Shown here: positions 23,405 through 64,000 of the stretch, piece after piece
Layout of the letters: each line of letters opens with the position of its first letter
Position numbering within the stretch: position 1 is the stretch's first letter
NCBI GenBank assembly: GCA_965243025.1
Contig: CBDETY010000003.1
Location: 3,008,001-3,072,000, forward strand
DNA from: Candidatus Latescibacterota bacterium
GTDB lineage: Bacteria; Latescibacterota; UBA2968; UBA8231
Length of the DNA stretch: 64,000 nucleotides
Reading direction: 5' to 3'
The notes under the pieces: model-generated
Databases searched by the model: none
Seen by the model: only the letters and a program-made list of their open reading frames with translations
Told to the model about the DNA's origin: nothing
Position numbers and translations under genes: made by a program

Positions 23405-23623
23405 TGGAGTTGACCCGATTTCGTGGACACTTCATTTCTTGAAGAGAGAAAGGAGGGTGTCCAACCATGCCGAAATCCCATTCCCCTTATCCGCCCGAAT
23501 TCCGGCAACAGATGGTGGAGCTGGTACGGGCGGGTCGTAGCCCGGAGTCGCTGGCCAAGGAATTCGAGCCGTCCGGGCAGACGATCCGCAACTGGGTGAT
23601 CGTCCGGAGCAGGAGGAATTGCG
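23405..23623 (+). mobile_element. IS3 remnant (IRL + partial orfA with internal deletion)
   Basis: Matches the 5' ~195 bp of the other IS3 copies, then jumps to cgtccggagcaggaggaattgcg. Confidence 0.88.
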
Positions 23624-23629
23624 CGCACC

Positions 23630-24660: not shown

Positions 24661-24870
24661 ATGACTCGGACAGGAAGTGATGTTCTCGAGAGGGGGGCTT
24701 TCGCGCCCTATCTTCGGTTAACCGTGCCCGTACACACTGGCACTTGGTATCTTGAGTTCCTAAACATTCAAGAGGCTTTACCGAACCATCGCGACCTTTG
24801 AGGCCACCCGATTTTTAACGGACGGTTTTTCGTATGGACCCTGCATTGAACCCGTGTATGGAGGCATCAG

Positions 24871-38061: not shown

Positions 38062-38087
38062 GCGCGCACGGAAGGAGAAGAGGAAAG

Positions 38088-38813: not shown

Positions 38814-38845
38814 AGGGGACCGGGGGAACTGCAAGGAACGGGACC

Positions 38846-41224: not shown

Positions 41225-41315
41225 GAGAAGGGATCGAACGAGAACTTCGTCAGGGAGCGCTGGAGCCGGGAGAGGCGGGGTCCCAGGAGGCCCGGGAAAC
41301 TAAAAGGAGCAAACC

Positions 41316-43727
41316 ATGTGGAAGAGCAACCTGATCATTGCCCTGCGCGTGCTGGGACGCAACAAGGGGATCTCGCTGATCAACGCCGTCGGACTGTCCG
41401 CGGCCTTGGCGGTGGTGGTGCTGTGTCTGCTGTTCGTGCGGCACGAGACCTCCTACGACTCATGGCACGAAAAGGGGGACCGGATCTTTCTGATTTATTC
41501 TGAATCCCAACGGCATAACTACAAGATGACATACCTGCGTTCCGAGCTGCGCGATGCGGTGCGCACGACCGTAGCCGGCATCCGCGAATCGGTCCACATG
41601 CACCTTGTTGAGGGCAAGGTCTCCTACGGCGAGTCGAGCTTCGAGGGGCGTTTTCTGGCTGTCGATCCGGCCTTCCTCACCCTGTTCACCCTTCCGCTGG
41701 CCGCCGGTGACCCGTCAACCGCCCTCGACGAGCCTCACAGTGTCGTCCTCGCCCACGGGACGGCGCGGAAGTACTTCGGCTCCGATATCCCAGTTCACGC
41801 CATGCTGGGAGAACGTATTCGGCTGAACCATGTCGAGCGCGACAGGTTTGGTGCACCCAAGGAGACCATAGGGGTTGAGCGCATCATCACCGGAGTGCTT
41901 GCTCCCCTGCCCGGGCCTTCCATACTGCATTTGGAGGTGATCGTTCCCGAAAAAACCGCCGAAGAACTTCGTTTCCTCGGTGCACCGGGACTGTTTATCG
42001 AGCTGGAAGGGGGCGTGAATCCGGCTGAGTTTGAAACGCGGCTGGCGCAACTGGGCACCCAGTACGGTCTCGGGGACAGGAAGGCCTCACTTAAACTGGT
42101 ACCCTTCAAGGACGCTCACTTCGGGCCGGAAATCCTTGGACCAGCCGCCGTGGGCCGCGGCAAGATCGAGCACTGCTTTCTGCTGGCCGGGCTGGCCGCT
42201 GTCGTGCTCCTGATCGCCGCCATCAACTTCGTCAACCTCGCCCTTGGCCGAGGCATGTCCCGCACTCTCGAGGTCGGCCTGCGCAAGGCGATCGGGGCCA
42301 CTCGACCCCAGCTCTCCAACCAGTTCCTTGCCGAAGCCATCGTCGTCAGTCTGATCGCCGTTGCCGGTGGCATGGCCCTGGCTGAATTGCTCCTTCCGTC
42401 CTTCAACCAAGTCGTACATCGACAGCTCGAACTTGAGTGGCTGTCCCTCGAGACCGGGACAGCCGCCCTGACCCTGGCCTTGTTAGTCGGCTTACTCTCC
42501 GGCTTGTACCCCGCCCTGGTCATCGCCCGCCTGCACCCGGTTCAGGCTCTCTCCAGAAAGGGCCCACAGCTTGGCCGCGGCCTTGTCGGCCGCGGTCTGA
42601 TCCTTCTGCAATTCGCCCTGTCGACCTTCCTCGTCGTCGTGACGATCACCATGGAGCGACAACTGGACTTCATGCTCACCAAGGACTTGGGTTTCGACCG
42701 CGACCGGGTGGTTAGGACAAGGGTCTTCGGCGATGTCGACGTTTTGCAGATCGAGCGGCTCGCCGGCGAAATCGACTCCCGACCGGGACTGGTCAAGGGA
42801 GTGGCCGGGGCCGAAACACCACCTGGCGCTGGTGGGTCGAACCTCACACAACTCCAGCTTGGCGAGAAATCCATCCTTGCCAAGCCCTTTCAGGTAGGTC
42901 CGGGTTTCCTGCAAGTCATGGGGATCGATCTCATCTCAGGCCGGGACTTCGCCCAGAACAACGAGCCGGGTCAGCGGCAAGGCATCCTCATCAACGAGAC
43001 CGCCGCCCGCCTCCTGGGACCCGAAAACCCGGTCGGCCGCTTTCTGACGTTTCCCGATTACGGTAATGAATCGATGCCGGTGATCGGCATTGTCGAGGAC
43101 TTCCACTACGAGGACTTCCGCTATGCAGTGGGGCCGGTCTTCCTGACCACGTCCTATTTAGTGCGCGGGTTTCGTAGAATGGACGAGTACGAAAGCATTG
43201 TGTTCCGGCTCGACCACCGCGACCTGCCCACGTCGGTCGAGGAGGTGAAGGCGCTGTGGAAGCGGGTTCTGCCCGAGCAGGAATTACAAGGGGTGAGTTT
43301 CCTCAACAATAATTTTTATTGGGCACATGAGACCGAGCGTCGCGTCGGGACTGTCATGAAGTGGATGAGCGCGATCGCCCTGATCATCTCCTGCATGGGC
43401 CTCGTTGGGCTCGCCGCCCTCGCCGCCGCACGGCGCACCCGGGAAATCGGCATCCGCAAGGTCCTCGGGGCCACCACCGGTAGCGTAATGATGATGATGT
43501 CGCGCGAGTTCGGGTGGCTCGTGATTGCCGCAAACGCCATCGCCTGGCCCGTCGCCTCCTTGGTCCTCGACCGCTGGCTCGCCTTCTACGCCTACCGCAT
43601 CGACCAGAGCCCGGCCTGGTTCGCGTTGGCCGGCGCCGGCGTCCTCGCCGTCGCCCTGGCCGCTGTCAGCGGGCAGACTTGGCTGGCGGCGCGGACCAAC
43701 CCGGCCGACGCCCTCAGGTACGAGTAG
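41316..43727 (+). CDS. MacB/FtsX-type ABC permease, close paralog of 38846-41224
   Basis: Same motifs; near-identical 5' and 3' DNA. Confidence 0.93.
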
Positions 43728-43869
43728 TGATCCTTACCGTGAGCTGGTTCTGGAAGAAGCGAGAAGGCGGCGAAAGCCTCGTTGGCGAAGCGGTCCACCG
43801 GGGCGATACGGGGGACCCTGACCCCCGCAAGGACCCTGCACACGCAGTAACCACCGAAAGGAAACCGCC

Positions 43870-44544
43870 GTGATCGAGATGCGCGACATCGAGAAATACC
43901 ACCGGTCCGGCTCCTTCAAGACCTACGTGCTGCGACACGTGAACCTCGAGGTCGAGGCGGGGGAGTTCCTGTCGATCATGGGGCCGAGCGGCGCCGGCAA
44001 GTCGACGCTGCTGCACATCATGGGCATGCTCGACGAGCCGACTGCCGGCGAGTACCGGTTTCTCGGCAAGCAGGTGAGCGGACTGAGCGAGAAAGAGCGC
44101 ACCGAGGTGCACCGGCGGCACATCGGCTTCGTCTTCCAGGCCTACCACCTGATCGACGAGCAGACGGTGTACGAAAACCTGGAGATGCCCCTGCTCTACC
44201 AGCAGGTGAAGAGGTCCGAGCGCAGGGCGCGCGTGAGCGAGTTGCTCGACCGCTTCCAGATGGTCGTCAAGAAAGACCTGTTCCCGCACCAGCTCTCCGG
44301 CGGCGAGCAGCAGCGCGTCGGCGTCGCCCGCGCCCTGATCGGACGACCGGCGCTGATCCTCGCCGACGAGCCCACGGGCAACCTCAACTCCATGCAGGGG
44401 GAAGAGGTGATGGCCATGCTGCGGGAGCTGAACGACGAGGGCACGACGATCGTTCAGGTGACGCACTCGGAGAAGAACGCCGGCTACGGCAGCCGGGTGG
44501 CGCATCTGTTGGACGGCAGGATAGAGCTCGAGGGAAAGTGCTGA
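43870..44544 (+). CDS. ABC ATP-binding protein
   Basis: [25 protein letters not shown]. Confidence 0.95.
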
Positions 44545-44546
44545 CC

Positions 44547-46958
44547 ATGCTGCGCAACTACCTCCTGATTACCCTGCGCAACCTCCGCCGGCAGAAACTG
44601 TATGCAACGGTCAATACAGCGGGCCTGGCAATCGGCATGGCGGGTTTCGCGCTCATCCTGTTCTTCGTCCGCCACGAATTCGGCTACGACCGGTTTCACC
44701 ACGGAGCGGAGCGCATTTTCCGCGTCGTCGTGGAGATGCGCTCGGAAAGTTTTGACGGAAAGGCACCGATCGCCCCAGCCGCCCTGGCGGCCGCCCTTCG
44801 CGAGCAGGTCCCCGAGGTTGAAGCGGTCAGCCGGGTGTGGCAACCCTTGTTCGTGGGGGGAGTCAAGCCGGTAGTGCGGGTCGGCAACGACGTCTATTTC
44901 GATGATCGATTCTTCTGGGCGGACCCGGAGCTATTCGACGTGTTGAGTTTCGAGTTCGTGCACGGCGACCCCAGGACGGCGCTTGCCGACCCCAAGGCGG
45001 TCGTGCTCTCGGAGAGCACTGCAGAGCGGTATTTCGGCGACCTGGACCCCATAGGCCGGCCGCTCAACGAGGGAGAGCATGTGGTTCGCGCCGTCGTGCG
45101 CGATTTCCCGACCAATTCCCACCTCAGGTTCGACCTGCTGGCCGCCGCTTCAGGGACTGGTGTGGACCAGTTCCCTCTGGAAAAGAGATGGTACGACCAC
45201 AGCTATCCGACCTACTTGCGTGTCAGAATGGGAGCTGACGGGGAACGGATTGTCGAGCAGATGAACGCCATCGTTCAAGGACAGATGGGTGAGCTTTACA
45301 GGCAGATGAACCATGACGTCAGCTACGGATTGCAGCCCATCGTCGACGTGCACCTGCATTCCGATTTTTACGCCAACATCGGCAGCACGAGCGGCGACAT
45401 AGCCCATATCTACGCTTACAGCGCGGTTGCCGTGTTCCTGTTGCTTCTGGCGATCATCAATTTCACCAATCTCGCGACAGCACAATCCTCGGAGCGCGTG
45501 CTGGAGGTTGGCGTGCGCAAAGCGGTGGGAGCATACCGCGGCCAGCTCGTCCGTCAGTTCATCGGGGAAGCGATCATTCTGAGCTTCGCTTCGCTGGGTG
45601 TTGCGCTGTTCATCATGAAGATGGTGACGCCGTGGTTCAACGAGCTGACGGGAATGAAACTTGCGCTGAACCTGCCGGAGAACCCGCAGATTCTGTTGGC
45701 GATGTCCGGAATGGCGCTCGTTACGGGGCTCTGCGCCGGCTTCTACCCCGCCCTGCAGATGTCCGCCTTCACCCCGGTCCGGGCACTCAAGCGGATGATC
45801 GACCGGTCCGGCCGGTCGGTCGGACTGCGAAGCATCCTCGTAGTGACTCAGTTCACCGTTTCCATCGGCTTGCTGGCGGCGACCCTCATCGTCGGCGAGC
45901 AGCTCGCCTTCCTGCGCTCGAAATCCCTCGGTTTCGACAAGGACCACCTGATCGTCTTCACCACCCGTTCAGATGCAATCCGGCGGCAGTTCGAGCCTGT
46001 GCGCCAGGACCTCCTGGCGAGCCCACTCGTCACGGCCGTCGGACGCTGTTCGCAGGAACCGGGCTACGTGATCAACAAGTCCGACCTCAAAACGACGGGG
46101 CCGGATTCGGAGACGTTGCAGGTCACGATGCTCTGGGTGGACTACGACTTCGTCGATGCCATGGGCATGCGGGTGCTCGAAGGCCGTTCCTTCTCCAGAG
46201 ATCACGCCGACGACCCGAAGCACGCTTTACTGGCCAACGAATCGATGGCCCGTCTTCTCGGCCCTGAGTCCGCAGTCGGGGCCCGACTGGAAAGTCAAGG
46301 TGATGCAGGTGCGGCGACGGTCGTCGGGGTCGTAGCCGACTTCCACTTCGGTTCCCTGCACCAACCGATCGAGCCCCTGGTGATCGCCATGCCGGAAAAC
46401 GCAGTGAACGGCAGCTTCAGCCCTGCCTATGCGGTATTGCGCCTGGCCCCGGGAAACCCGCGACAGGGGATTGAGTTCATCCGTAAGACCCTGCGATCGC
46501 ACAACGATCCCTTCCCCTTCGACTACCACTTCGTCGACGAGCGGCTCGACGCCCTGTATGACTCGGAGGAACGCCTGGGCCGCATCTTCGCCGTTTTCTC
46601 CGGACTCGCCGTGTTCCTCGCCTGCCTGGGCCTCTTCGGTCTGACGGCTTTCACGGTGCAGAAGCGCACCAGGGAGATAGGCATCCGCAAGGTGTTGGGT
46701 GCGACCAGCCTGTCCGTGGTCGTTCTGCTTTCGAGAGATTTCACCCGCCTGATCCTGCTGGCCAACCTGATTGCATGGCCCATCGTCTTCTTTGCCGCCG
46801 ACCGCTGGCTGCAGGGTTTTGCCTATCGCATCGATCCGGGATTGGGGTTGTTCGTTGCAGGTGGTCTCGTGGCGCTTGCGACCGCCTGGCTCACCGCCTC
46901 GTATCACACGCTCAGAGCAGCGCAAGCCAATCCGGTGAATGCCCTTCGTTCCGAGTAA
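44547..46958 (+). CDS. MacB/FtsX-type ABC permease
   Basis: [37 protein letters not shown]. Confidence 0.93.
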
Positions 46959-46981
46959 TTCTTCAGGCAAAGGAGATAGCC

Positions 46982-49354
46982 ATGCTCATCAACTACCTGA
47001 ACATCGCCGTCCGCCACCTGAACCGGCACCGGCTCTACGCTCTGACCAACATCTGCGGTCTGGCCGTTGGAGTCGCCGGCTGCCTGCTGATGGCGGCCTG
47101 GGTCCTCGGCCAACTCCGGACCGACCGGTTTCACGAGCACGGAGACCGCATTTACCGCATCTACACCCAAGGGGAAGGAACCGTCCGCCTTTCCGTTCCC
47201 GCCGCCCTGGGGGCCAGCCTCAAGGGCCAAGCTGACGTCGAAGGCGTGGTGCGCATGCTGAAAGTGGACAACCCGGTTCCGCTCGTCAGCCACGGAGACC
47301 GGCGTTTCTACGAGAGAGCCTTCTGGTTCGCCGACCCGGAAGTTCTGACGGTCTTCACTTTTCCCCTTGTGGCGGGCGACGCCGCCACCGCCCTCGGGGA
47401 ACCCTTCACCGTCCTCCTGACCGAGTCCGCGGCCCGCAGGCTGTTCGGCGACGCCGACCCCATGGGGCGGGTCATCCGCTTCAGGGACCACCTCGACCTG
47501 AGAGTGACCGGGATTCTGCGCGACCTGCCCGAACAATCACACCTGCGGTTCGAGTTCCTTGCCTCCTTCGCCACGGTAGAGCGCTGGCTGGGGTCAGCGG
47601 CCGTGAACGATTGGCGCCGCAACATGAACGCCACCTACATCCTTCTGCGTCCCGGCGTGGAAAAGGAGACCTTGAGCCCCATTTTCGACGGGCTCCGGGA
47701 AAAGCACCTCGGGTCCGAGGACAGCCGCCACTGGGAGCTGCAGCCCCTCCACCGGATACACCTCCATTCGCGGGGGGACCTGGGCATCACGGGAGGAGGA
47801 GACGTCCGCGAGGTGATCATCCTGGGGACGGTCGCCCTGCTGGTACTCCTCGTATCCTGCCTCAACTATGCCAACTTGGGAACCGCCCTAGCCTTGCGGC
47901 GGGTGCGCGAGATCGGACTGAGGCTGTCGATGGGGGCCGGCCGAAGCCAGCTCGCACGGCAGTTCCTGATCGAGTCGGCCCTTGTGACCGCATTGGCCTT
48001 CGCCGGCGCCCTGGCCCTGGCGGACACCCTGGCTCCACACTTGGCGCGACTGGGAGGGATGGAGATCGGCTTGGCCTGGTCCGATCCGATGATTCCGGTC
48101 CTGATGGCGTCGGTATTTCTGCTGGTCGTGGTCCTGTCGGGAGGCTACCCCGCCTTCCGCCTTTCCCGGATCGCACCGGTGCGGGCCCTGGAAGGCAGTG
48201 TTGCCGGCGGTGGCCGGAACGCCCGCCGAGCCATGGTGACGGCGCAGTTCATCGTCTCCGTGGGGTTGCTCTCCGCCACCGCGATTGCCTGGCAGCAGCT
48301 CAATTTCATCAAGAACACCGAACTCGGAATCGAGACCGAGCAGCTCCTTGTGGTGCCGATCCGCAACCCGCAGATGCGGAGCGACCAGCAGGCGGTCAAG
48401 GCGCGGTTGGGCGAGTTGCCGGAAATCACCTCGGTGAGCGCGGCAGCTCTGTTGCCGGCAGGGCCCCTGGGAAGGAGCACCCTCCTGCCGACTCGCCCCG
48501 GAGCGGATCCCGTGAGCGCCGACCTGCTGTGGGTCGACCCCGGGGTTGCGGAAACCCTCGGAATGAACCTTGTAGCGGGAGAGGGATTCACCGAGAGCAT
48601 GGAGCCGCGCAACGGTTATTTCATCCTCTCCATGGCCGCGGTGCGGGCCCTGGGGTGGGAGTCCGCTGATTCGGCGATTGGCCGAACCTTGGAGCTCGAA
48701 CAGGCCGGGGGAACGGGCGTTTCACCCAGGGGCACCATCACCGGAGTGATCGAGGATTTTCACTCCGGGACACTGCGGCGCGGTATCCAACCGGTCGTCA
48801 TGCAGTTGTGGCCATGGCACAACTACCTGCTCGTTCGCTTCCGCCTCCATTCCCTGCAGCAGGTGGTGCACCAGGTAAAGGCCTTGATGGCCGAACTCGA
48901 TCCCGTCCATCCCTTCGAGTACTCCCTCCTCGACGACCGCTTCGCCGCTTTGTACCGGAAGGATGAAAGATTGGGGTCGCTGTTCGCGGGCTTCGGCGGT
49001 CTGTCCCTTCTCATCGCCTGGGTAGGGATGTTCGGTCTCGCTTCCCTCGCCGCGGAGCGTCGGCGCATGGAGTTCGGGGTGCGCAGGGTACTGGGCGCTA
49101 CCGGTGCGGAGATCGGCCGGCTCCTCGCCGGAGACCTTACCCGCCTTGTGCTAGCGGCAGGGTTCCTCGCCTGCCCGATCGCCTACTTTGGCATGGGTGC
49201 GTGGATGGAGCAGTTCAGCGAGCGCGCCGAAGTCGGTGCCGGTCCGTTCCTCGCGGCAGTTGCGGCCGCGTTGGTCGCCGCTTGGGTAAGCGTCGGTTAC
49301 CATGCCGTCAGGACGAGCCGGATCGATCCAGTAGAAGCTCTGCGCTGTGAGTAA
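46982..49354 (+). CDS. MacB/FtsX-type ABC permease
   Basis: AAGGAG RBS then MLINYL; EIGLR..MGA; ALRCE. Confidence 0.92.
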   Translation: MLINYLNIAVRHLNRHRLYALTNICGLAVGVAGCLLMAAWVLGQLRTDRFHEHGDRIYRIYTQGEGTVRLSVPAALGASLKGQADVEGVVRMLKVDNPVPLVSHGDRRFYERAFWFADPEVLTVFTFPLVAGDAATALGEPFTVLLTESAARRLFGDADPMGRVIRFRDHLDLRVTGILRDLPEQSHLRFEFLASFATVERWLGSAAVNDWRRNMNATYILLRPGVEKETLSPIFDGLREKHLGSEDSRHWELQPLHRIHLHSRGDLGITGGGDVREVIILGTVALLVLLVSCLNYANLGTALALRRVREIGLRLSMGAGRSQLARQFLIESALVTALAFAGALALADTLAPHLARLGGMEIGLAWSDPMIPVLMASVFLLVVVLSGGYPAFRLSRIAPVRALEGSVAGGGRNARRAMVTAQFIVSVGLLSATAIAWQQLNFIKNTELGIETEQLLVVPIRNPQMRSDQQAVKARLGELPEITSVSAAALLPAGPLGRSTLLPTRPGADPVSADLLWVDPGVAETLGMNLVAGEGFTESMEPRNGYFILSMAAVRALGWESADSAIGRTLELEQAGGTGVSPRGTITGVIEDFHSGTLRRGIQPVVMQLWPWHNYLLVRFRLHSLQQVVHQVKALMAELDPVHPFEYSLLDDRFAALYRKDERLGSLFAGFGGLSLLIAWVGMFGLASLAAERRRMEFGVRRVLGATGAEIGRLLAGDLTRLVLAAGFLACPIAYFGMGAWMEQFSERAEVGAGPFLAAVAAALVAAWVSVGYHAVRTSRIDPVEALRCE

Positions 49355-49391
49355 CCAGACTCAATCACACCATAGACGTAGGAGATTGAAG

Positions 49392-50040
49392 ATGCTGCGA
49401 ATTAATCTGCTCGTTGCCCTCCGCACCCTGCTGCGGCACAAGAGAAAGTATCATCAACCTGTTCCGGGCTGAGCATCGGAGTCGCCTGCTGCACGCTGGT
49501 CTACCTGTACGTCGATCACGAGTTGCGCCACGACGCCGTTCAACGAGAAGGGTGAACGGATCTACAGGCTTCTGCTCGAAGACGGAGCGAAGGGATAACC
49601 GAAAAAATTATCTTTAAATGGAACAAGGTTTGTCGGCGGGGCACCGACGAAAAAACAGCCCACCCGGAAGAAACTTGGTGATGGAATCCCAAGGGGGATC
49701 ATTCCTTCCTCTGTCCCGGTGGCCTTCCGACCCCGGGTGCCAGTTTGTCCTGCTTCTGGTGTCATCCGCAAGGTCCTCGGGCAACCACCGGCAGCGTGTT
49801 GATGATGATGTTGCGCAAGTTCGGATGGCTCGTGGTGCCCCCGCCAACGCCATCGCTTGGCCCGTCGCATTCTTCGTCCTCACCGCTGGCTCGCCTTCTA
49901 CGCCTACCGCATCGATCAAAGCCCGGAATGGTTCGCGCCGGCCGGCGTCGGGGTCCTCGCAGTCGCCCTGGCCGCTGTCACCGGGCAGACCTGGCTGGCG
50001 GCGCGGACCAACCCGGCAGACGCTCTCAGGTACGAGTGGT
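49392..50040 (+). pseudogene. Permease remnants (5' fragment ~49392-49580; 3' fragment ~49763-50037)
   Basis: MLRINLLVALRTLLRHK start; the 3' piece matches the ends of the 38846/41316 genes with indels. Confidence 0.8.
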
Positions 50041-50706
50041 GCTCAGGATCATGATCTGGTATTCTTCAAAGAAGGGAGGCTTGCGAAAGCCTCCCGTTCC
50101 CATCTGATCTACTGGTGCCAGAAAAGCAGCGATGGGGGGCGGGAATCTTTCGTGGGATGGCAGCTTGTAGCCAACCGGTTCCTGAAAAACGAGGACGGCA
50201 TGGACTTGGAGAACACGGGGGCATCACTCGGTCATGGGACAATTCCTTCGGGTTTTGGAGCAAAGGGGGTTTGCCCCGATCTCACATGGGAAGACCTGCA
50301 CAGTTGTCATTCGGAGGACCGGAACTGTCAGGCTGAAGGGGGGAGATGAAACGGCAAGATTGCCCCGAACTCCCGTTACTCCTTCACATGGGAAGAAGTG
50401 GCGCAAGAATAGGCCCCTGAGGACGGGAAATCCGCAGCCTGCACGCGATTTCGTCCAGTCCTAACCAATTGCGGAACTTCCAGGAGCAGATGATTCAGAT
50501 AGATTTCCTGCTTCAGGAGCTGCATGGGCAAGGTCGGCTGGCACCGCTCTCATCGAGGGCGACGAAGCGAGCATTCGGAAGCTACTTGGCGAGTTGGCCG
50601 GGCAGGAGGGATCGTCAAATTAGGAACTCCCTATGTTCTCTTAAGGCGACATGAAGGACTTGATCGGTAAGGGCTCCTTGGCACAGGCGTGAGGTTCAGA
50701 GAATCA

Positions 50707-54775: not shown

Positions 54776-54928
54776 GGGGGCGTGCCCGATGCAGATTGCT
54801 TGACTGGTCAGCAGGAATCCTGTGATATTGCCAGCCACCCGACATTCCCGATTTTCCAGCCCTTCGCGAAACAGCGCTATCGTTTCATATGCCTTGTTTT
54901 GAACATTTCACATGCTCGAAGGTCCTTC

Positions 54929-55022
54929 ACGTAACGTCTCACCGATTGCCGAACTCGCCGAAGACGATCCCAAAGGCCAAAGGTCGGCGCCGCCAGCCGT
55001 AGCGGAAAACGAGTTGTAATGG
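54929..55022 (-). repeat. attC-like site, branched family
   Basis: taacgtctcaccgatt.ccgaactcgccgaag shared with 63311-63406; ~12 bp after the stop at 55034. Confidence 0.75.
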
Positions 55023-55033
55023 GACGTGCAGAT

Positions 55034-55732
55034 TCATTGTCGTCCCGTGGACGTCCCAATAAGAAAATCCGAGGCGGCAAGCCACTGCTCTGCGACTGTA
55101 CGAAGGTCGCCTCCTGGTATCGCGACCCTCGCTGGAATCTCCTGGAGCACCGCGCGCAGCTCTCCACCCCGCTGACGAAGCAAACTCATATCGGTTTGCC
55201 CCCGTAGCACAGATTTTACTTCCGAGTACGCAAAGTGCATCGCCGTGCCTATGCGGTGTTCTAAGGACCAGTCCATTTCATTCTCTCGACGAAGCCGAGA
55301 AACCAGTAGTCTTTCTGGAGGATACTCCCCAACCGACAGGTATCCTGGTTTGCATTCTGCCAGCGTGCCAAATCTGGCAACGTCCTCACCACGCTCGAAC
55401 GGGCAAAGATCCATGAGGTTCAGATCCACTTTGTGAAACACTGACTCGTTACGAAGAACCGTTCCAAGCATGCATGCCGACGTCGCGGTGGACATGAGCA
55501 TCCCGTGGTAGCGAAAAGGACGATAAGAGTTCAACGCACCCACCACATTCCAGCAGCAGCCAGGAAATCCAGAGACTACGAGAAGAAGGTCGATGTCCGA
55601 CCAACGATCCTCTTCGCCCCTAGCCTCCGAACCGAACGTGTAGCAACGCTCAACGACTGGAAGGGTCCCAAGGAAATCACACAGGTCCTTCGCCAGTGTC
55701 CGCCTTGCAGCCATTCCAGGTTGAGTCAACAT
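55034..55732 (-). CDS. Pol-beta-fold nucleotidyltransferase, ANT(6)/Lnu-like (cassette)
   Basis: FGSEARG..DRWSDIDL..KVDL. Confidence 0.8.
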   Translation of the reverse strand: MLTQPGMAARRTLAKDLCDFLGTLPVVERCYTFGSEARGEEDRWSDIDLLLVVSGFPGCCWNVVGALNSYRPFRYHGMLMSTATSACMLGTVLRNESVFHKVDLNLMDLCPFERGEDVARFGTLAECKPGYLSVGEYPPERLLVSRLRRENEMDWSLEHRIGTAMHFAYSEVKSVLRGQTDMSLLRQRGGELRAVLQEIPARVAIPGGDLRTVAEQWLAASDFLIGTSTGRQ

Positions 55733-55777
55733 CCCGTTCCTTTGGGGGAATCTTGATCTTACACCCTACCTACATTG

Positions 55778-55861
55778 CTCAAACGTTTCGCCGTGCCCGA
55801 ACCGCGAATGCGGTTGCCCGAAGGCGCGCCTGCGCCAAAGCCGGGCACGGACGTGTTAGGC
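55778..55861 (-). repeat. attC-like site, branched family
   Basis: GCCTAAC-ACGT-CCGTGCCCG...CGGGCACGG-CGAAAC-GTTTGAG; 6 bp after the stop. Confidence 0.85.
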
Positions 55862-55867
55862 GAAGAC

Positions 55868-56668
55868 TTACACTTCAGCCAGAATTACCATTCCCACAGG
55901 AAGTCGAGGCACGTCACCCTCACTGTCGACATTATCCCAACCAGCCAATTCTTCAAGTCGGCGAATGACAAATCCCGCATCAGCGATGGCGTTAACGACC
56001 TCCGCGAGGGGATGAAAGAATTCGACAATTTCTCGCTCCCCTTTCCAGCCACCGTGTTTGTCAGCGAGTGGAGTGCCGTCGAAACGGTAATACCCAGGTG
56101 ACGTGTTGAAGTAATCTCGTTCGACCGAAAAGACGCCATCCCTCTCCGACAAGCATTCCAAGACTGGATTGCCGTGGGTTAATACCAATCGTCCCGTTGG
56201 CTTGAGGACCCTGTGCCAATTGCGACAACACAAGAATAGATCCTCGAACCAGCAGATGTACGTTGCAACGACGATATCCAGGCTACCGTCAGGTATCGGC
56301 AACAAAGTCTGAGCATCGGCTTCGACAAATGTGACATTCGATCCGATCTTGGCCGCATTTTCCTTTGCAATGCGGATCGCTACTGGGCTGATGTCGCAGG
56401 CCGTAACGTGGGCACCGAGATTCCCCCAGGAGAAAGCCTGTTTCGCATCTCCCGCGCAACAGGTATCTAGCAGGTGCGCCCCGGAAACGTCACCAGCCAA
56501 TTGGACTACTGCTGCGTCGAGGGTGACTGCCCCCTCAGCATAGTGCTTATGGAAGTTCGGCACCTCTTTGAGGTTGAAATCCATGTAGGCTTCTTGGTAT
56601 TCGTCCCAAGCTTCTCTCAGCATCTTGTTATGGATGGCTTGTTTATCTGGCTGGTTCATATTTGACAT
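55868..56668 (-). CDS. Class I SAM-dependent methyltransferase (cassette)
   Basis: LLDTCCAG, VTACDIS, EADAQ, RVLKPTG. Confidence 0.88.
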   Translation of the reverse strand: MSNMNQPDKQAIHNKMLREAWDEYQEAYMDFNLKEVPNFHKHYAEGAVTLDAAVVQLAGDVSGAHLLDTCCAGDAKQAFSWGNLGAHVTACDISPVAIRIAKENAAKIGSNVTFVEADAQTLLPIPDGSLDIVVATYICWFEDLFLCCRNWHRVLKPTGRLVLTHGNPVLECLSERDGVFSVERDYFNTSPGYYRFDGTPLADKHGGWKGEREIVEFFHPLAEVVNAIADAGFVIRRLEELAGWDNVDSEGDVPRLPVGMVILAEV

Positions 56669-56695
56669 TTCCCCACAACCGGAAATCGAGTTTTC

Positions 56696-56754
56696 GCCTA
56701 ACGGACAAGGGCTTGCGATGGGCGGACCCGCGTGTGCGCGGTGTATAGTTGAGA
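56696..56754 (-). repeat. attC-like site (short, eroded)
   Basis: TCTCAAC ... GTTAGGC on the minus strand. Confidence 0.6.
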
Positions 56755-56794
56755 AGGGTCCTCAAGCCCGGAGTTGGTGGCCGTGCTCCCCTCC

Positions 56795-57271
56795 CTACTC
56801 CCGCTCCACGAAATATTTCTTAAATCCGTGACTCGTCCCATCTTGCATTCCAAGGCGTTTGTAGAATCCCACCTGATCTTCGTTTGGACCGCTGAGTAAC
56901 TGTAACTTGTAGCAGCCCTTCTCTTCGGCAAGGTTAATCGCAAATGTCATCAGTTTTTTCCCAAATCCTTTGCCTCTTTGTTCGCGTGCAACAACGACGT
57001 TCTCGATGATAGCCCAAGGGCGCCCTTCGTAAGTAAAATTCGGAACGATTGCCATTATGAGAGTGGCCACTATTTCCTTATCCGACTCGCCCACAACAAT
57101 GAAAATGTTGCCGTAGTCAGACATCTCATCGAAGATCCGAATTGACTCTTCGAGTCCGAGAGTCTTGGCCGAAAGACTATGGGGGCGGCTCGTGATCTGA
57201 GGAAAGAGATTTAGCAGCGATTCGACGTCTAACCTGGTCGCAACTCGGCAAGAAATGTCTGAATGATTCAT
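56795..57271 (-). CDS. GNAT acetyltransferase (cassette)
   Basis: IENVVV...QRGKGFG, GCYK, FYKRLG. Confidence 0.92.
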   Translation of the reverse strand: MNHSDISCRVATRLDVESLLNLFPQITSRPHSLSAKTLGLEESIRIFDEMSDYGNIFIVVGESDKEIVATLIMAIVPNFTYEGRPWAIIENVVVAREQRGKGFGKKLMTFAINLAEEKGCYKLQLLSGPNEDQVGFYKRLGMQDGTSHGFKKYFVERE

Positions 57272-57300
57272 CCGGTGGCCTTTCTCGACTTCGGCATGGC

Positions 57301-57368
57301 CATTAACGTTTTACCGGTTGCGGAAGCCCAAGGTGCGCCAGCACCGCAGCGCAAACGTGTTGTTAGAC
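57301..57368 (-). repeat. attC-like site
   Basis: GTCTAAC ... AAACGTTAATG; shares gccgcagcgcaaac-type core with 57705-57796. Confidence 0.75.
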
Positions 57369-57376
57369 GCTGCTTC

Positions 57377-57694
57377 TCACAGCTCTACTTCCTCGCAAGC
57401 CCACTCCTGCTCAAATGTCATTAACTCATTCCAACGTTCAAGAATGGGTTCATATTGGCGATACCAGTCAGCGTAATCCTCCGAATTCGTCGTCTCCTCC
57501 CAAGTGTGACGACTCGACCAATACTGCAACGCGAGATAAAATCGAGTATCAGCGATGCGAAGCAGACCGAGCCGCAGACAACCTGGGAGTTTCTTGAAGT
57601 GTGGAACGATCTCCCCACTGACAAGACTTTCAAGCTCCCCTTGCTCCGCACCATCTCGCAATGACCACCGCTTAAACGTTATGAAGTTTGACAT
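57377..57694 (-). CDS. Dimeric alpha-beta barrel / ABM-like small protein (cassette)
   Basis: 105 aa; KLPGC..Y....YWSS pattern. Confidence 0.65.
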   Translation of the reverse strand: MSNFITFKRWSLRDGAEQGELESLVSGEIVPHFKKLPGCLRLGLLRIADTRFYLALQYWSSRHTWEETTNSEDYADWYRQYEPILERWNELMTFEQEWACEEVEL

Positions 57695-57704
57695 ATGAAA
57701 TTTT

Positions 57705-57796
57705 GTTTAACGTTCCGGGCGGCCTGCGAACCCGCGCAGCGGGTTGCCGGAGGCCAAGGCGCGATCAGCGCCGCAGCGCAAACCGCGGCGTTACCC
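57705..57796 (-). repeat. attC-like site, branched family
   Basis: GGGTAAC ... GGAACGTTAAAC; aacccgc/gcgggtt hairpin. Confidence 0.82.
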
Positions 57797-57869
57797 GATG
57801 TATCAAACCACTGGACGCACCTGCGCTACTTCACTCACTCTTGAGGAACGGCACGAATTGCATCATCTA

Positions 57870-59025
57870 GTGCTCTGTTAAAGAGTCGGCATTGAATTTT
57901 GGACCTTCACCAACTTGGCATCGTCCCGGTTTCGATGTCGCCATACGAGGTATTCCTGCATGCGTTGGCCGACGTCTCGATGGTCCCTTGGGTCGCTGTT
58001 CTTGATGACGAAGTAATGGGCCGCCGTCAGATGGCATTCGAGACGATTCATCCAGGAGGCGTTGGTCGCGGTGAAGACCAAAAAGACCTGATTTCGCTGA
58101 CACCATCGCCGGATCTTGTCGGTCGTGTGCGTCGACAGGTTGTCGAGGACGAGGTAGATGCGTTTGGCTTTGCGGTAGCGGCGCCGGATGGCCTTCAGGA
58201 AGGTGAGCACCACCGAGGCGTGCTTCTTCGGCTTGTGATGCATCCACAGGTGATCCTCGTGGACGTTGTAGGCGCCGAAGAAGTAGCTGACGCCGGCGTG
58301 CCGGGAGTAGGTGGCCCGGTGCCGCACCGGGTGTTTCTGCGGCGCCCACGAAGAGCCGGCATGGGGCTTGATCTGCACCGGCCCCATCTCGTCGAAGCAG
58401 ACTACGACCGCGTCCTTCGGCGGGCGCCGGTAGAGGCGGTCGATGCGTTTTTTTTCGAGGAGAAATCCGGATCCTTCGACTCCTTCCAGGTGCGGGTCCG
58501 CTGGTAGGTGATCTTATGCCGGTCCAGGACCTTGGCGATGGTCACGTGCGAGACCTTGGGGATCATCTGGCGCCCCACCAGACAGTCGGTCAGCTTGCGC
58601 AGCGACCAGTGATTGAAGGGTTCGCCGAAAGCTCGAGGGGGCATCTTGGCGATCTCCACCACCACGGACTCGTCTTCGGGCGTCAGCGTCGGGGGGCGCC
58701 CCGGATGGGCTCGGGTGCGCAGCGAGGCCAGCCCTTCCTCGTTGTATTGCCGCAGCAGTTGGCGCACGTATTCTTCGTGCAGATGCAGGGTCGACGACAG
58801 TTCCTGGACCCGCATACCCTGGGCACTGAGGGAGATCAACTGCCCTCGGCGCATCTGCACGGCATGGCGCGGCCGCTTCAGCCATCGGCTCAGTTCCCTG
58901 GATTCGGCCGCATTCGGTGTTCGAGCATGGAGACACATGGCAGGACCTCCCCGTAAGAATCGACGTATGTCCCCATGATACCAAGGCTTACGAGAAAGTA
59001 CAAGCCCCAATCCTTAACGGAGCAC
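57870..59025 (-). mobile_element. IS630-family element (orfs 58402-59010 and 57878-58387, joined by a probable frameshift at A8, 58448-55)
   Basis: IRs GTGCTCTGTTAAAGA/GTGCTCCGTTAAGGA, CTAG at both ends; LDNLSTH, ASWMNRLE. Confidence 0.93.
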
Positions 59026-59115
59026 TAGCTGGCGCGACAATGGCGATAAATCGACACCAGACTTCGGATCAATCACTGCAATCGTGTAATCAACTGTGGT
59101 ATCAGGGTAAACCTG

Positions 59116-60375
59116 TGGAGTTGACCCGATTTCGTGGACACTTCATTTCTTGAAAGAAAGGAGGGTGTCCAACCATGCCGAAATCCCATTCCCCTTATCC
59201 GCCCGAATTCCGGCAACAGATGGTGGAACTGGTACGGGCGGGTCGTAGTCCGGAGTCGCTGGCCAAGGAATTCGAGCCGTCCGGGCAGACGATCCGCAAC
59301 TGGGTGATCCAGGCCGAACGCGATGAGGGGGTGCGCCGCGACGGCCCCTCCCGTCCGGAGCAGGAGGAATTGCGGCGCCTTCGCCGTGAGAACAAGCAAC
59401 TGCGTATCGAACGGGAGATCCTGGCAAAAGCCACGGCCTGGTTCGCTCGCGAGGCCGACTCGGAGTCCGGCCCGTCTACGAGTTCATGAGAGCGCACCAG
59501 GCCGACTTTCCGGTGCTGACGATGTGCCGCGTGCTGAAGGTCTCCCCCAGCGGCTACTACGCCTGGTTGAAACGCCCGCCTTCGGGTCGCGCCCGGGCCG
59601 ATGCCGTGCTCAAGGCACGTGTCGAGCAGATCCACCAACACTCCCGGGGCACTTATGGAGCGCCGAGGATCCGGGCCGAACTGGCCGAGGAGGGCCAAGC
59701 CATCGGTCGCAAGCGCATCGCCCGATTGATGCTTGAGCTCGGGGTGCGCGGGGTATGCGCCCGCCGCCGCCTCTCCACCACCCGTCGCGGCCGGCAGGGC
59801 CGGGTCGCCTCCGACCTGGTCAAGCGGGTGTTTTCGGTCTCCGGCCCGAATCGCCTGTGGGTTGCCGATCTCACCTACATTCCCACGAGGTCGGGGTTTT
59901 TGTATCTGAGCGTGGTCATGGACGCCTGGAGCCGCCGAGTGGTGGGCTGGGCCATGGCGAACCATATGCGTACGCAGTTGGTGCTGGACGCCCTTGACAT
60001 GGCCCTGCACCGGCGCCGTCCCAAGAAAGTGATTCACCACTCCGACCACGGCAGTCAGTATACGGCCCTGGCCTTCGGGAAGCGCTGTCGCCAGGCCGGG
60101 GTACGTCCGTCGATGGGATCGGTCGGTGACTGCTTCGACAATGCTCTGTGCGAAAGCTTTTTCGCCACCTTGGAAAGGGAGCTGCTGGATCGTCATCGGT
60201 TTGCTACCCAGTCGCAAGCCCAGCGTACGGTTTTCGAATACCTGGAAGGCTGGTACAACCCCCATCGGCGGCACTCGGCCCTGGGACAACGATCTCCCAT
60301 CAACTACGAGAGGTATCATTTATCAAGGGGTATAAATCCAAACGGAAAACTGTCCGTGAAATCGGGGTAACCTCA
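59116..60375 (+). mobile_element. Complete IS3-family element (orfA 59175-59489, orfB 59486-60370)
   Basis: 4-bp TSD CCTG; ORF translations identical to 26197-27456. Confidence 0.95.
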
Positions 60376-60631
60376 CCTGAACAATCTTGTAGTCGATGGA
60401 AGGGTTCGGCTCCACAACGCGGACTGAATACTTAGCACCCAACTCAGGAACATGCACGTGGCGCAATTGTTTCAAAGCGTCTTCGACCCTTCGAACCGAA
60501 GACGAGTCACCTTGAACGACCAGCGTTAGTGGCTCTTCGGCGGGTTCGTCGCAGCTAGCCTCCAGGAGTGCCCCTACTCCTGAACAGATAATCCAGAGTC
60601 GTCGTCGCATCATGTTCTGATCTCGCATTTC

Positions 60632-60720
60632 GGGTAACGTCCGACAATTCCCGACAGCCCGAAGGGCTGTGCCGAAGGACGAGCGGCGAATGGCGCGCCG
60701 TGGGAATTGCTTTGATATAT
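60632..60720 (-). repeat. attC-like site with non-canonical R'' (ATATATC)
   Basis: caattccc/gggaattg stem, CAGCCC-GAA-GGGCTG hairpin, R' GTTACCC. Confidence 0.75.
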
Positions 60721-60791
60721 GACGTGTACTCTCAGAGGCAATGGGGTCCTGTTGGTGCACAATTTGTAAGATATCTTCGTTGAAACGCGAG

Positions 60792-61505
60792 CTACTCCGG
60801 CAGTCTTCCAGCTAACCATTCAATGGCGTTGAGGGTCCATGTCTCGTTTGACGCGCCCGCGAACAGATCTGTGCGGGAGTCGTCGAGGCTGGAAATGTGG
60901 CCCCCCGAGGTCATGACAACGGCCTTGCCCGCGATCGCCCCGGGCGGTTCTATTGCTGCGGCAAAATCGCCGACATTAGGGTCTTCACTACGGCCCAGGA
61001 CTGTGACGGAAGAACCCCGTCCCAAGGTCATTGAGCAGGATGTCCGGATCTGTAAGCCGTGGGGACAATTTTGCGAAATCGGATGGGAAGGGACCAGCAC
61101 TATTCGTGGCGTTCTAACCCACTCCTCATGGAATGTTACGGGCAAGTCCAACGTGCGAGCGACTTGATTCTGCGGTTCAACGAACCCCTTGTGATTGGCC
61201 ATGAGGAATAGACCACCACCGCGCGTAAAGAAATCGGTGATGGCGGCCAATTCGCCGTCCGAGAACGGAATACTTTTTCTTCTCCCCGAGATCACCAGGA
61301 CTCCGGCCTCGCGTAGGGAAGCCGCTTCGAGATCCGTAGGATCCATAGTGTAGCCACGGGCAGTGAGAGCGGAGGCAAGTCCAACCAACCGCTGTCCTCG
61401 CCAAGCGTCCCCTCGGGGCGGTTCACTATAGTTTTCAGGTTCCGTACCTTGATGTCGAATAACCTGATGACTTTTCGAATCGAAAGCCACTTTTACCATA
61501 ACCAT
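60792..61505 (-). CDS. Class I glutamine-amidotransferase-like fold (DUF4350/GldG-like) protein (cassette)
   Basis: FD..H, FSDGELAAITDFFTRGGGLFL, HPI, NAIEWL. Confidence 0.7.
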   Translation of the reverse strand: MVMVKVAFDSKSHQVIRHQGTEPENYSEPPRGDAWRGQRLVGLASALTARGYTMDPTDLEAASLREAGVLVISGRRKSIPFSDGELAAITDFFTRGGGLFLMANHKGFVEPQNQVARTLDLPVTFHEEWVRTPRIVLVPSHPISQNCPHGLQIRTSCSMTLGRGSSVTVLGRSEDPNVGDFAAAIEPPGAIAGKAVVMTSGGHISSLDDSRTDLFAGASNETWTLNAIEWLAGRLPE

Positions 61506-61534
61506 GGTACTATTCCAGTCACCTTATCCATGTC

Positions 61535-61624
61535 ATATATCGCTTTCCGGTTGCCGAACCCGCGAAGCGGGTTGCCGAAGGCCAAGGCGCCCGAGGGCGG
61601 GGCAGCGGCCACAGGTTGTTACCG
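61535..61624 (-). repeat. attC-like site with non-canonical R' (GATATAT)
   Basis: CGGTAAC...; aacccgc-GAA-gcgggtt and gcc-GAA-ggc hairpins. Confidence 0.8.
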
Positions 61625-61640
61625 GATGTGAGATCTCAAC

Positions 61641-62384
61641 CTACCCGAACCCGTTGGTCCGTATCCATTCGATTGACGACGAGATGCCCTCGTCAAGAGT
61701 TTCCAAGCACCACACAGCTTCCGGCGCATACTCCAGAAGAGCACTACACACCTCACCAATAGGGATAGTCCCTTGATCAAGAGCGAGGTGCTCGTCGGGC
61801 TCTCCGTGATTGTTGTGCATGTGAACCCACCCGATTCTGGGTCCAAGTCGTTCGACCCACGCTATCGGAGTCTCACGAGAGTTGCAATGGCAGTCCCCAA
61901 TATCGAGGCATACGTCCACTCGAGGATCATTGATTGCGTCGATCACTTCAGCTAGCAGGACGGCATCCCATCCGAGCATGTTCTCAACATGGTAGCGAAC
62001 AGAGGGTTCCTTGCACTCAAGGAAGTCATGCCAGAACGCCACACATCGAGACAACCAATTCTGCGGGGCGCTGGTGCCTGGGACGTATCCGTGGTGTAGG
62101 ATGATGTCGAAGCAATCTAGTTCACGGGCGAAGCGGCACGCCAGTTCGAATCGATGCCGGGTCACCTCCCGGATCATGGGATCATAGCTTCCAGCGCACA
62201 GATCCCCGAAAGGTCCGTGGAGTGAACGTAGCTGAAGATCATCCAGAGGTCTTTGTAATGCTGCCACCCTCTCTGGCTCGAGGAAAGACTGGATCTCGAT
62301 CCCATATCCATGTTGACGACAGACAGCGGCGTACTGGAGATCATCGACCGCAACCATAATGCGATGGGGTTTGTAACTCGTCAT
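61641..62384 (-). CDS. Sugar-phosphate isomerase/epimerase (AP endonuclease 2 fold) (cassette)
   Basis: SLHGPF, VENM, CLDIGD, HMHNN, DEHL, CLET; start at MTSYK after the attC. Confidence 0.88.
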   Translation of the reverse strand: MTSYKPHRIMVAVDDLQYAAVCRQHGYGIEIQSFLEPERVAALQRPLDDLQLRSLHGPFGDLCAGSYDPMIREVTRHRFELACRFARELDCFDIILHHGYVPGTSAPQNWLSRCVAFWHDFLECKEPSVRYHVENMLGWDAVLLAEVIDAINDPRVDVCLDIGDCHCNSRETPIAWVERLGPRIGWVHMHNNHGEPDEHLALDQGTIPIGEVCSALLEYAPEAVWCLETLDEGISSSIEWIRTNGFG

Positions 62385-62404
62385 CACTTCGCAAATCTCC
62401 TTTC

Positions 62405-62488
62405 CGGTAACGTTCTCGCCGTGCCAGAACCGCGAAGGGGTTGGGCGAAGGCACCTCAGCGCCGAAGCCGGGCACGGACGTGTTATAT
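62405..62488 (-). repeat. attC-like site, branched family
   Basis: ATATAAC-ACGT-CCGTGCC...GGCACGG-CGAGAAC-GTTACCG. Confidence 0.85.
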
Positions 62489-62514
62489 GCAGTGCCGCAA
62501 GCGCTGACAACACT

Positions 62515-63255
62515 TCACGGACCCTGTGCCTGGTAGACCCCAATTATTCGGTCAATACTCTTGGTATGAAGGCGCTCATGCCATACCAGGCGACGCAAAA
62601 CCTTCCCCACAGACCAGCCGCCGTGAGCATCTAAGAGATGAATTCGCGAAAGGTCTTGTTCTGCCTTCAACTTCTGTAATGCCTCGATTGTCACGTTTCG
62701 ATGTTTTAATAAGTTATGCTGCCACGGACCCTTACTGTCAGCGGGCGAAACGGTAGGACGGATACCAATGTTTGGCAAGTAATAGTGAGTTTCTACGTTT
62801 GCGATGTGCACAAGAATCTGTCGGATTGTTCGCCAGTTCGCCCAAGTTGAAAAACGGCGATAGGGCGGATTCCAATCTAAGGCGTTGTCCGACAACTCAG
62901 CGACCTGCCTCAGAAGGTCTGTGCGTGTGGCATGAAGTAAATCGATTGTCTCATCAATCAATGAAGGTGTTACCGGCTGGTAATCCCAGTCGAACAGTAT
63001 CTCGTTTCCGCTGACCTGTTCGGCAACCTCCACTTTGGGTAGCTCTAACCCCACTCGGCACGGCACGCCACACCTTTCGCGAAACCGAATGTACTCCAGC
63101 AGTCTGTCGGGGACCTTTGCAAGGACTTCGTTTTCGGTCTCTCTCCATGTAGCAAAGCCGAGATAAGATGGAATCCAGGCATGGTATCCCGCTTCCCCAT
63201 CTTCGTCGAAAGCTCTGTGGAGGTAAACTTTTGAACTCGCTCTCGGCTCAAGCAC
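62515..63255 (-). CDS. HicB-like N-terminal domain + DinB-family protein (cassette)
   Basis: AW.P...G..T..ET; TIRQILVHIANVE.HY; WSVGKVLRRLVWHERLH. Confidence 0.8.
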   Translation of the reverse strand: MLEPRASSKVYLHRAFDEDGEAGYHAWIPSYLGFATWRETENEVLAKVPDRLLEYIRFRERCGVPCRVGLELPKVEVAEQVSGNEILFDWDYQPVTPSLIDETIDLLHATRTDLLRQVAELSDNALDWNPPYRRFSTWANWRTIRQILVHIANVETHYYLPNIGIRPTVSPADSKGPWQHNLLKHRNVTIEALQKLKAEQDLSRIHLLDAHGGWSVGKVLRRLVWHERLHTKSIDRIIGVYQAQGP

Positions 63256-63310
63256 TCTGATCCTGGACCTTTCTGTGCCTCATTGCATGTCCTCTCTCAG
63301 TCCGCATTGC

Positions 63311-63406
63311 ATATAACGTCTCACCGATTACCGAACTCGCCGAAGGCGAGTTGCCGACAGGCCAAGGTTGGAGAAGCCAGCCGCAGCGGTAAACGAGTGG
63401 TTAGTG
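63311..63406 (-). repeat. attC-like site, branched family
   Basis: CACTAAC...GAGACGTTATAT; CTCGCC-GAA-GGCGAG hairpin. Confidence 0.85.
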
Positions 63407-63469
63407 GATGTGCGATTCTCTCCAAGAACAGCCGGTATGAGGAGAAAAACTCTCAGTCTCTCAGGACAC

Positions 63470-63910
63470 TCAGACAGACGAACGAACAGGTCTTGATGCC
63501 CAGCCTAGGGTTCCAACGCCACCGATGGTTGCCGCGGTTCCAACCACCATCCCCACGATGGTCCCTCCGCCGCATTCCTCGACGCCCAACTCCATTAGTC
63601 TCCAATACTGGTAGAGAGTCCCGACGAAGACCGGAAGCATCCCGATTGCGATTGCTGTCAACCGCTGCCCCACACTGAACTCCTTCAGAAAGCGCCTACC
63701 CAAATTGTACCATACAAAAAGCGTCCCGGCACCGAAGATCGCGAAGACAGCTAGCATTACCAGTCCGAATGGAACTCCCTCGACCGGATTGTTGAGAAGG
63801 GCGTAAAAGACGCCTATGAACAGCGCCATCATGCTGACCGCAGTGGCCAGGAGCGCGACCCCAGCCCCCCCGGGACTACCAAGCAGATCAAGAAAGCGTC
63901 GAATACTCAT
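63470..63910 (-). CDS. Hypothetical membrane protein, ~4 TM (cassette)
   Basis: Four hydrophobic segments; GAGGTG RBS; lies between attC sites. Confidence 0.75.
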   Translation of the reverse strand: MSIRRFLDLLGSPGGAGVALLATAVSMMALFIGVFYALLNNPVEGVPFGLVMLAVFAIFGAGTLFVWYNLGRRFLKEFSVGQRLTAIAIGMLPVFVGTLYQYWRLMELGVEECGGGTIVGMVVGTAATIGGVGTLGWASRPVRSSV

Positions 63911-63957
63911 TCCGCATCCACCTCAAGGCTCAAGGTTCCCTAATTCTATCGCATTTC

Positions 63958-64000
63958 CACTAACGTTTTGACAGGACTCCGAACCGGCGTCAGCCGGTTG
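63958..64000 (-). repeat. attC-like site (partial, runs off the window)
   Basis: cactaacgttttg...ccgaaccggc..gccggttg. Confidence 0.7.

Follow-up and report, generated by a model that had tools for sequence, protein, structure and literature searches.

A co-varying GAT/ATC core in an attC class from cassette arrays of Latescibacterota

Sedentary chromosomal integrons, whose recombination sites are organized as R''-L''...L'-R' with a crossover at G|TT, offer the closest comparison for the locus described here. To our knowledge, AAC/GTT is taught as the sole sequence common to all attC sites, and cassette-finding tools and primers lean on it. The arrays considered here resemble these integrons in having one co-oriented ORF per cassette and a foldable imperfect repeat, in cassette-specific complementarity between R'' and R', and in a crossover between base 1 and base 2 of the core, as read from a comparison of contexts. 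They likewise end at an attI-like site by a divergent tyrosine recombinase gene. They differ in the GAT/ATC core treated below and in a recombinase without the additional domain of IntI.

Tolerance of GAT as such is already published. In the portions of Frumerie et al. 2010 (PMC2811028) available to us, the second core position is described as ‘quite tolerant’ in class 1 mutagenesis, only the first core base must match between partners, GAT is cited as a preferred secondary site, and with IntI1 a T2 to A2 change combined with the complementary change raised recombination. The attC(aadA7)/attI1 GAT sites in those portions carry the same base at the same position, with the partner changed too, as here; however, they are laboratory mutants of a class 1 site used with a canonical IntI, whereas the class described below is natural, spans genera and accompanies another recombinase clade. 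GAT is also taken as the target triplet in secondary and attG sites (GNT/GWT), but these are double-stranded genomic attI-like partners, whereas here GAT lies in a folded attC and is matched by an ATC in R''. The IntI1 data may not transfer to a recombinase in which the additional domain is missing. The literature searched, which includes the available portions of PMC2811028, PMC4889954, PMC12901181, PMC8352920, PMC5027507 and PMC2426708, describes no natural attC class with a GAT/ATC core, and census supplementary tables may hold examples; the natural class is thus new within that literature.

Cassette X and the array that carries it

The window, meaning the whole stretch of 64,000 nucleotides that was analysed, maps to C3:3008001-3072000 of the genome of a Candidatus Latescibacterota bacterium (G000 below; assembly GCA_965243025.1), and coordinates without a prefix are window positions. 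A sequence-only reading had pointed to a cassette, here cassette X, in which GAT/ATC stands in place of GTT/AAC, and both 10-mers are present exactly as it claimed. On the plus strand, positions 60714-60723 read GATATATGAC and positions 61532-61541 read GTCATATATC, its exact reverse complement and hence a match to the GATATATGAC pattern on the minus strand. The two bracket the ORF at 60792-61505 just where the integron R boxes belong, and A/T replaces the middle T/A of GTT/AAC; A60715 is the middle base of GAT and T61540 the middle base of ATC. Alignment of neighbouring sites places the boxes of X in register with GTTATATGC (62483-62491) and GCATATAAC (63305-63313), the difference between these columns being the middle base of the conserved triplet. 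The 10-mer count is by itself unremarkable (3 matches with at most one mismatch, 1.22 expected, and at least 3 in 14 of 100 shuffles), and the weight rests on position and on co-variation in related cassettes.

The ORFs, an attI-like site and an integrase remnant lie on strands that identify the minus strand as the cassette top strand, which gives 60638-61540 as the extent of cassette X and makes the left site, 60638-60723, its own attC. The sequence-only reading took the plus strand as top and wrongly assigned the right-hand site to X, an error that its description of the boxes survives because they are mutual reverse complements. The features are as follows.

54925..64000, continuing to C3:3073398 past the window end, minus strand: cassette array with X (profile matches, junction)
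60638..61540, minus strand: cassette X, 903 nt (box alignment, NYN-cassette boundaries, end of the X1 contig alignment)
60638..60723, minus strand: own attC of X (nhmmer E=2.5e-14, folds; subclass GAATTGCT.TG.TAT.TGA)
60714..60723, minus strand: R'' box of X, top strand GTCATATATC, core ATC and not AAC
60792..61505, minus strand: ORF of cassette X, 237 aa, with weak sub-cut-off matches to DUF4350 and ABC_transp_aux
61532..61541, minus strand: R' box at the start of X, top strand G|ATATATGAC, 10/10 complementary to 60714-60723
61541..61627, minus strand: attC of the upstream cassette, with canonical R'' GTTACCGG on the plus strand at 61618-61625
61641-62543, minus strand: ORF of the upstream cassette, xylose-isomerase-like TIM barrel (protein family match)

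On the bottom (plus) strand, cassette X runs from C60638 to T61540; its top strand starts ATATATGACATGG and ends at the G of the R' box, while G61541 is part of the upstream cassette and 61540-61532 part of X. These limits are inferred from the box alignment and from the boundaries shown by four copies of a same-class cassette encoding an NYN domain (see below). The attC of X is a foldable imperfect inverted repeat, in which the L-box stem CAATTCCC (60645-60652) pairs with GGGAATTG (60702-60709), with spacers of 6 and 4 nt and a variable loop; in place of the conserved AAC/GTT triplets it carries ATC and GAT.

Four minus-strand ORFs of the window (60792-61505, 61641-62543, 62515-63255 and 63470-63910) are each followed by an attC, so that every cassette has one co-oriented ORF with the attC at its 3' end, and the stretches between ORFs each contain a hairpin site about 90 nt long, reading ...AAC on the left and GTT... 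on the right of the plus strand. An nhmmer profile built from seven gap sites of this genome found matches in four places: C3:3060-3073 kb, a second array at C3:4100-4119 kb, and two small groups. The last cassette of the X array meets the attI-like site and integrase remnant at C3:3073398, past which lie the conserved sequence C|TGATT.CA.CCGAAC....GGTT.GG.TAATG and then, on the plus strand, what is left of a tyrosine recombinase gene. The second array also ends at an attI-like region, beside a 193-aa internally deleted recombinase gene, and the same region adjoins a homologous recombinase gene in six related genomes.

Eight homologous attI-like sites beside integrase genes could be aligned, with conservation starting at the C of the core and a different cassette side in each, and the region contains a palindrome CCGAAC...GTTCGG (C3:3073398-3073440; L062-L091). 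The motif CGAAC....GGTT.G..TAAT has 41 occurrences, spread over 22 of 76 genomes (reversed control, 0), with up to five copies in some genomes and most copies lacking a recombinase gene within 1.5 kb. Eleven of the 41 places were left out of the junction reading. The attI-like junctions read number 32, most of them with no adjacent integrase whatsoever; six read ...CATATAT|C, the non-cassette side starting exactly after the core. We claim no enrichment of ATC at these junctions (6/32 vs 6/93 in arrays, p = 0.075, with non-independent loci). A scenario in which arrays are capped by insertion of a GAT cassette at attI, with decay of the integrase to follow, looked attractive at ten loci and was rejected with 32 junctions: the integrase is readable in one frame at 0/6 ATC and 4/19 AAC junctions (p = 0.54).

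Three IS3-family copies (orfA/orfB) are present in the window, at 59116-60375, 4166-5400 and 23405-24700. One of them interrupts the cassette directly downstream of X, whose boxes, GTTACCCGA at both ends, still match over 2.8 kb.

The 5-mer GCTTT abuts both variant boxes of X (60709-60713 and 61542-61546) and resembles a target-site duplication. This arrangement, GCTTT|GATATATGAC ... GTCATATATC|GCTTT, is what a transposable element with 10-bp terminal inverted repeats and a 5-bp duplication inside an attC would leave directly beside both 10-mers, yet we consider such an element highly improbable. Once the segment is excised, two attC bodies remain that are each one R box short, and other cassettes with the same boxes differ in their flanks (TGCT|...|TGATT and CTGT|...|GTCTT). 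The ORF of X lacks a transposase signature and matches no transposase family, and no copies of the 828-bp segment were seen outside attC arrays. Moreover, the NYN copies also share the attC body, so that the mobile unit is a cassette and not the segment between the repeats. As GCTTT is absent at other GAT cassettes, we take its presence on both sides of X to be chance.

Sequencing or assembly error at 60715 and 61540 would mimic a variant core, and we give it practically no weight. The sequence-only reading proposed confirming both bases in reads; on contigs, both stand in one independent assembly and one of them in a second. A 6791-nt contig from run X12, a separate assembly that may derive from the source sample, shows 0 differences over 60560-61700 and so agrees at both bases, and a contig from run X1, of another study, agrees at 60714-60723. 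Position 61540 is covered by X12 only, and neither box is covered in runs X2 and X3. Besides X, these boxes are found at other places in this genome and in at least 11 further genomes.

GAT/ATC as an attC class and its co-variation

The same 10-mer pair is not confined to X. As the sequence-only reading suggested looking for, further GAT/ATC pairs exist in the same genome: GATATATGAC/GTCATATATC also brackets the attI-proximal cassette, 11 kb from X (C3:3072723-3072732 and 3073389-3073398), and GATATTTGAC/GTCATATATC bracket the first cassette of the second array (C3:4119341 and 4120183). The left box has an AAC core at 71 and an ATC core at 5 of 93 sites from seven genomes, and for the right box the counts are 77 GTT and 6 GAT; ATC and GAT are the commonest non-canonical cores, every other variant occurring at most three times.

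The attC of X has the body type GAATTGCT.T|G.TAT.TGA. A search with the pattern GAATTGCTNTGWTATNTGA returned 16 matches in 76 genomes of the order (14 GAT, 2 GTT), and in 168 genomes of the phylum the subclass has 19 matches (17 GAT, 2 GTT), spread over 12 genomes, 8 genera and 2 families; the reversed pattern gave 0 matches. Two distinct attC body types carry GAT, ending ...AATTGCTGT| and ...AAAACGTGCT|. Judged by these counts, GAT/ATC is the usual state of the whole subclass and not a private compensatory mutation of X. The earlier proposal that a compensatory change arose in X therefore fails, since the same triplets are usual in an attC subclass of two bacterial families. For X itself, no homologue or second copy was found in 75 related genomes of the order.

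Pairing between the two ends of a cassette is widespread in these arrays. Among 79 pairs of neighbouring attC sites, 38 are complementary at 9-10 of 10 positions, the remainder including degenerate sites and places at which a site probably escaped detection. When the comparison ignores the middle core base, 45 of the 79 are recognisable pairs, comprising 41 GTT/AAC, 1 GAT/ATC (X), 1 one-sided and 2 other pairs. Within the subclass, a partner box (at most one mismatch, within 1.5 kb) was found for 9 of 14 GAT sites, and all nine partners end in ATC; since one mismatch was allowed, an AAC partner would have been detected. Both GTT sites of the subclass have AAC partners. The other 5 GAT sites have no partner at this threshold in the available 1.5 kb, one of them having a two-mismatch candidate that also ends in ATC. 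Other box positions co-vary too, for example positions 6 and 10 (GATATCTGAA with TTCAGATATC), as well as in GATATATGAT with ATCATATATC.

Pooling distinct cassettes gives 8 that are variant at both ends, 0 with a variant R'' alone, 1 with GAT in its start box alone and 42 that are canonical at both ends (Fisher p=1.4e-8, which overstates the case because the genomes are related). One uncompensated cassette lies in the second array (C3:4117237/4117978; GTTACATGAA vs GATATATGAA), with a start of G|ATATATGAA and an R'' of ...CATGTAAC. The earlier statement that both triplets changed so that pairing is kept is borne out: the triplets are complementary, they lie in boxes that pair in the circular cassette, and their relatives strictly co-vary.

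Two readings would explain this complementarity without the core being in use. In the first, neutral decay of a dead array produced two independent point mutations that are complementary by chance, in keeping with an integrase that is dead in this genome and with degenerate boxes (e.g., GTA, GTC and TAG) in the same arrays. We regard this as very unlikely, because the identical 10-mer pair is found at other cassettes of this genome and of G012, G010 and G049, because GAT (6/93) and ATC (5/93) lead the non-canonical cores while the others reach at most 3, because GAT partners co-vary in 9/9 cases, and because a roughly 98% identical copy of X in the X1 contig keeps the R'' box.

In the second, complementarity is kept by descent of one attC module or by templated copying (quasipalindrome correction), and GAT is neutral baggage. 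Imperfect palindromes are hot spots for templated mutation, and a change from ATATAA to ATATAT makes an imperfect palindrome perfect; furthermore, all GAT boxes have the GATAT context and most sit on one attC body type. However, GAT occurs on two body types, the class persists in 8 genera of two families, there is independent co-variation at other box positions, and the NYN member was mobilised at least three times, which a non-functional core would forbid. Descent or copying thus seems unlikely to us as the full account. We hold it probable, with good confidence, that X is a genuine integron-type cassette of a conserved attC class with R boxes ...ATATC/GATAT... in place of ...AAC/GTT....

Mobility of the class and its recombinase

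Evidence of mobility comes from the NYN-domain cassette with a GAT core, which occurs, at 99% identity or more between copies, in four contexts: at attI-like sites in G012 and G010, and behind attC bodies in G012:C10 and G011, these two bodies differing from each other. Between G012 and G011 the identity is 99.3% over 696 nt, and the four-way alignment contains only a few scattered differences. The shared block extends from the C of the left box to ...GTCATATAT|C, after which the four contexts diverge. The left neighbours of the three copies that retain their attC are all different, one of them being of the ATC type. The mobile unit thus includes the attC body and ends exactly at the core, and these four copies place the limiting crossover of the class between the first two bases of R'. 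The G011 copy has lost its own attC body by deletion: at L032:2836-2865, its GTCATATAT leads through 9 nt into the R' box of the next cassette, so that two cassettes are fused.

By these alignments, the NYN cassette has been placed as a discrete unit in at least three further contexts in two genera. Comparative evidence thus shows a GAT class that is conserved and co-varying, with one member moved as a unit with its crossover at the core. Since a GAT-core cassette moved among four contexts, a recombinase accepting GAT has acted on the class, which upholds the earlier proposal of a GAT-tolerant recombinase at the level of the class; in the genome of X itself, that proposal finds no intact integrase to attach to.

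For X, the X1 contig (893 nt, depth 5.4, from a different study) covers 60638-61504 with 16 substitutions and one 3-nt deletion (about 98% identity), and has no change in 60714-60723. Its alignment ends exactly at 60638 and is followed by 26 more, unmatched letters. This end point, in a single 5.4x contig, gives a thin hint that X itself has been mobile.

No match above the TIGR02249 cut-off (265 bits) was found in the genome of X, the best reaching 95.3 bits and being partial. One integrase copy has an internal deletion (C3:4120324-4120905; L001:1174-1755), and the other consists of fragments at about C3:3073630-3073800. With both copies wrecked and no working integrase, X is now frozen in its own genome. 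An intact relative in G011 (293 aa, L021:1198-2076) has integron integrase as its best family, in two stretches and at 223.6 bits against the cut-off of 265. Alignment with canonical IntI from its own bacterial family shows 41 residues to be missing where those proteins carry the additional domain. Among solved structures VchIntIA (2a3v) comes closest to it, the match once more being split in two, with about 42 residues missing (query 187-206 against chain 178-239). Neither the genome of X nor the G011 relative thus has an IntI with the additional domain at TIGR02249 >265 bits, and across the genomes with the short recombinase (G000 and G010-G015) no TIGR02249 match exceeds the cut-off.

Three intact copies of the recombinase from three genera have a dN/dS of 0.07-0.12, so the short form is maintained. 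Judged by these profile and structure matches, the recombinase beside the arrays is not a canonical IntI and is closest to integron integrases. A search for relatives with the integrase alignment across genome contigs returned one locus, from Bacteroidetes, at 41% identity. Surveys that select integrases by the additional domain, as in the available portions of PMC2426708, would miss this clade, and its arrays would be filed as integrase-less.

Predicted folds and a pairing constraint on the core

RNAalifold on seven sites recovered the inner stem only, and nhmmer with constrained single-sequence folds was used instead. In the predicted in situ fold of the X attC, the L stem has 8 pairs (z = -3.14) and no bulge. 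The circular form is predicted to have a continuous 14-pair R stem (-27.8 kcal/mol, vs -22.7 in situ); this bottom-strand fold, with T61540 joined to C60638, includes the variant T-A pair.

We propose that in the excised single-stranded circle, ATATATGAC would meet the terminal G and pair with the cassette's own R'' GTCATATATC, the middle core base forming a T-A pair in place of an A-T pair. The array recombinase would then require that the middle position be paired and not that it be a particular base, and R''-R' pairing would be what selection maintains. A crossover between the first and second base (G|AT) would leave both variant bases on the cassette side of the cut, so that they would travel with the cassette and be inherited together. 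The earlier idea of selection on the folded circular site thus keeps its complementary pairing and gains co-variation across the class, and the selection step itself stays an inferred one; what falls away is the notion of a change private to X.

Within the array, the situation is predicted to be different. In the attCs flanking X, a variant half-core stands opposite a canonical one, giving an A.A or T.T mismatch, and the R boxes of both sites are unpaired in the predicted folds. GAT cassettes may therefore excise poorly from the array.

Extrahelical bases are expected on the arm opposite the cleaved AAC of the bottom strand, according to the available portions of Nivina 2016 (PMC5027507). In constrained DNA folds of 71 sites (from C3, including window 54925-64000, and from L030-L037), 61 instead have more unpaired bases on the arm of the cleaved AAC, typically 4 vs 1. 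The aadA1 attC of plasmid R100, folded in the same way, has the opposite asymmetry. It is the sole canonical control, because the attC profile had no match in the 20-kb flanks of three canonical IntI genes of the family or in one 2-kb flank at a contig end. The predicted surplus on the cleaved arm is only a lead.

Taken together, these features might mark a separate integron lineage, a reading we offer tentatively and consider doubtful: its recombinase would derive from, or be sister to, IntI, lack the additional domain and be under strong purifying selection, its attC sites would carry their unpaired bases on the cleaved arm, and the middle core position would be read only as a base pair. If this is true, GTT and GAT classes can therefore coexist in the same arrays, and a GAT cassette among GTT cassettes could be of a ‘sticky’ type, with good insertion and poor excision. 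The natural class fits the IntI1 picture, in which the position must pair and its identity is free. A mobile ATC/GAT class in nature would mean that what constrains the middle position, in one lineage or more, is its pairing and not the identity of the base. IntI1 mutagenesis predicted such a pairing constraint, and the GAT class supplies natural substrates for testing it.

Two minor observations are added. The attC at L036:18722-18859 (G015) is a perfect palindrome from AAC to GTT, with 19 outer-stem pairs and no unpaired base; the profile matches it on both strands, and it thus lacks structural strand asymmetry. Elsewhere in the window (36800-50100) lie several diverged tandem copies of a gene pair at a repeat spacing of about 2.5 kb and 60-92% DNA identity; they have no relation to the array and resemble paralogous genes for transporters or permeases.
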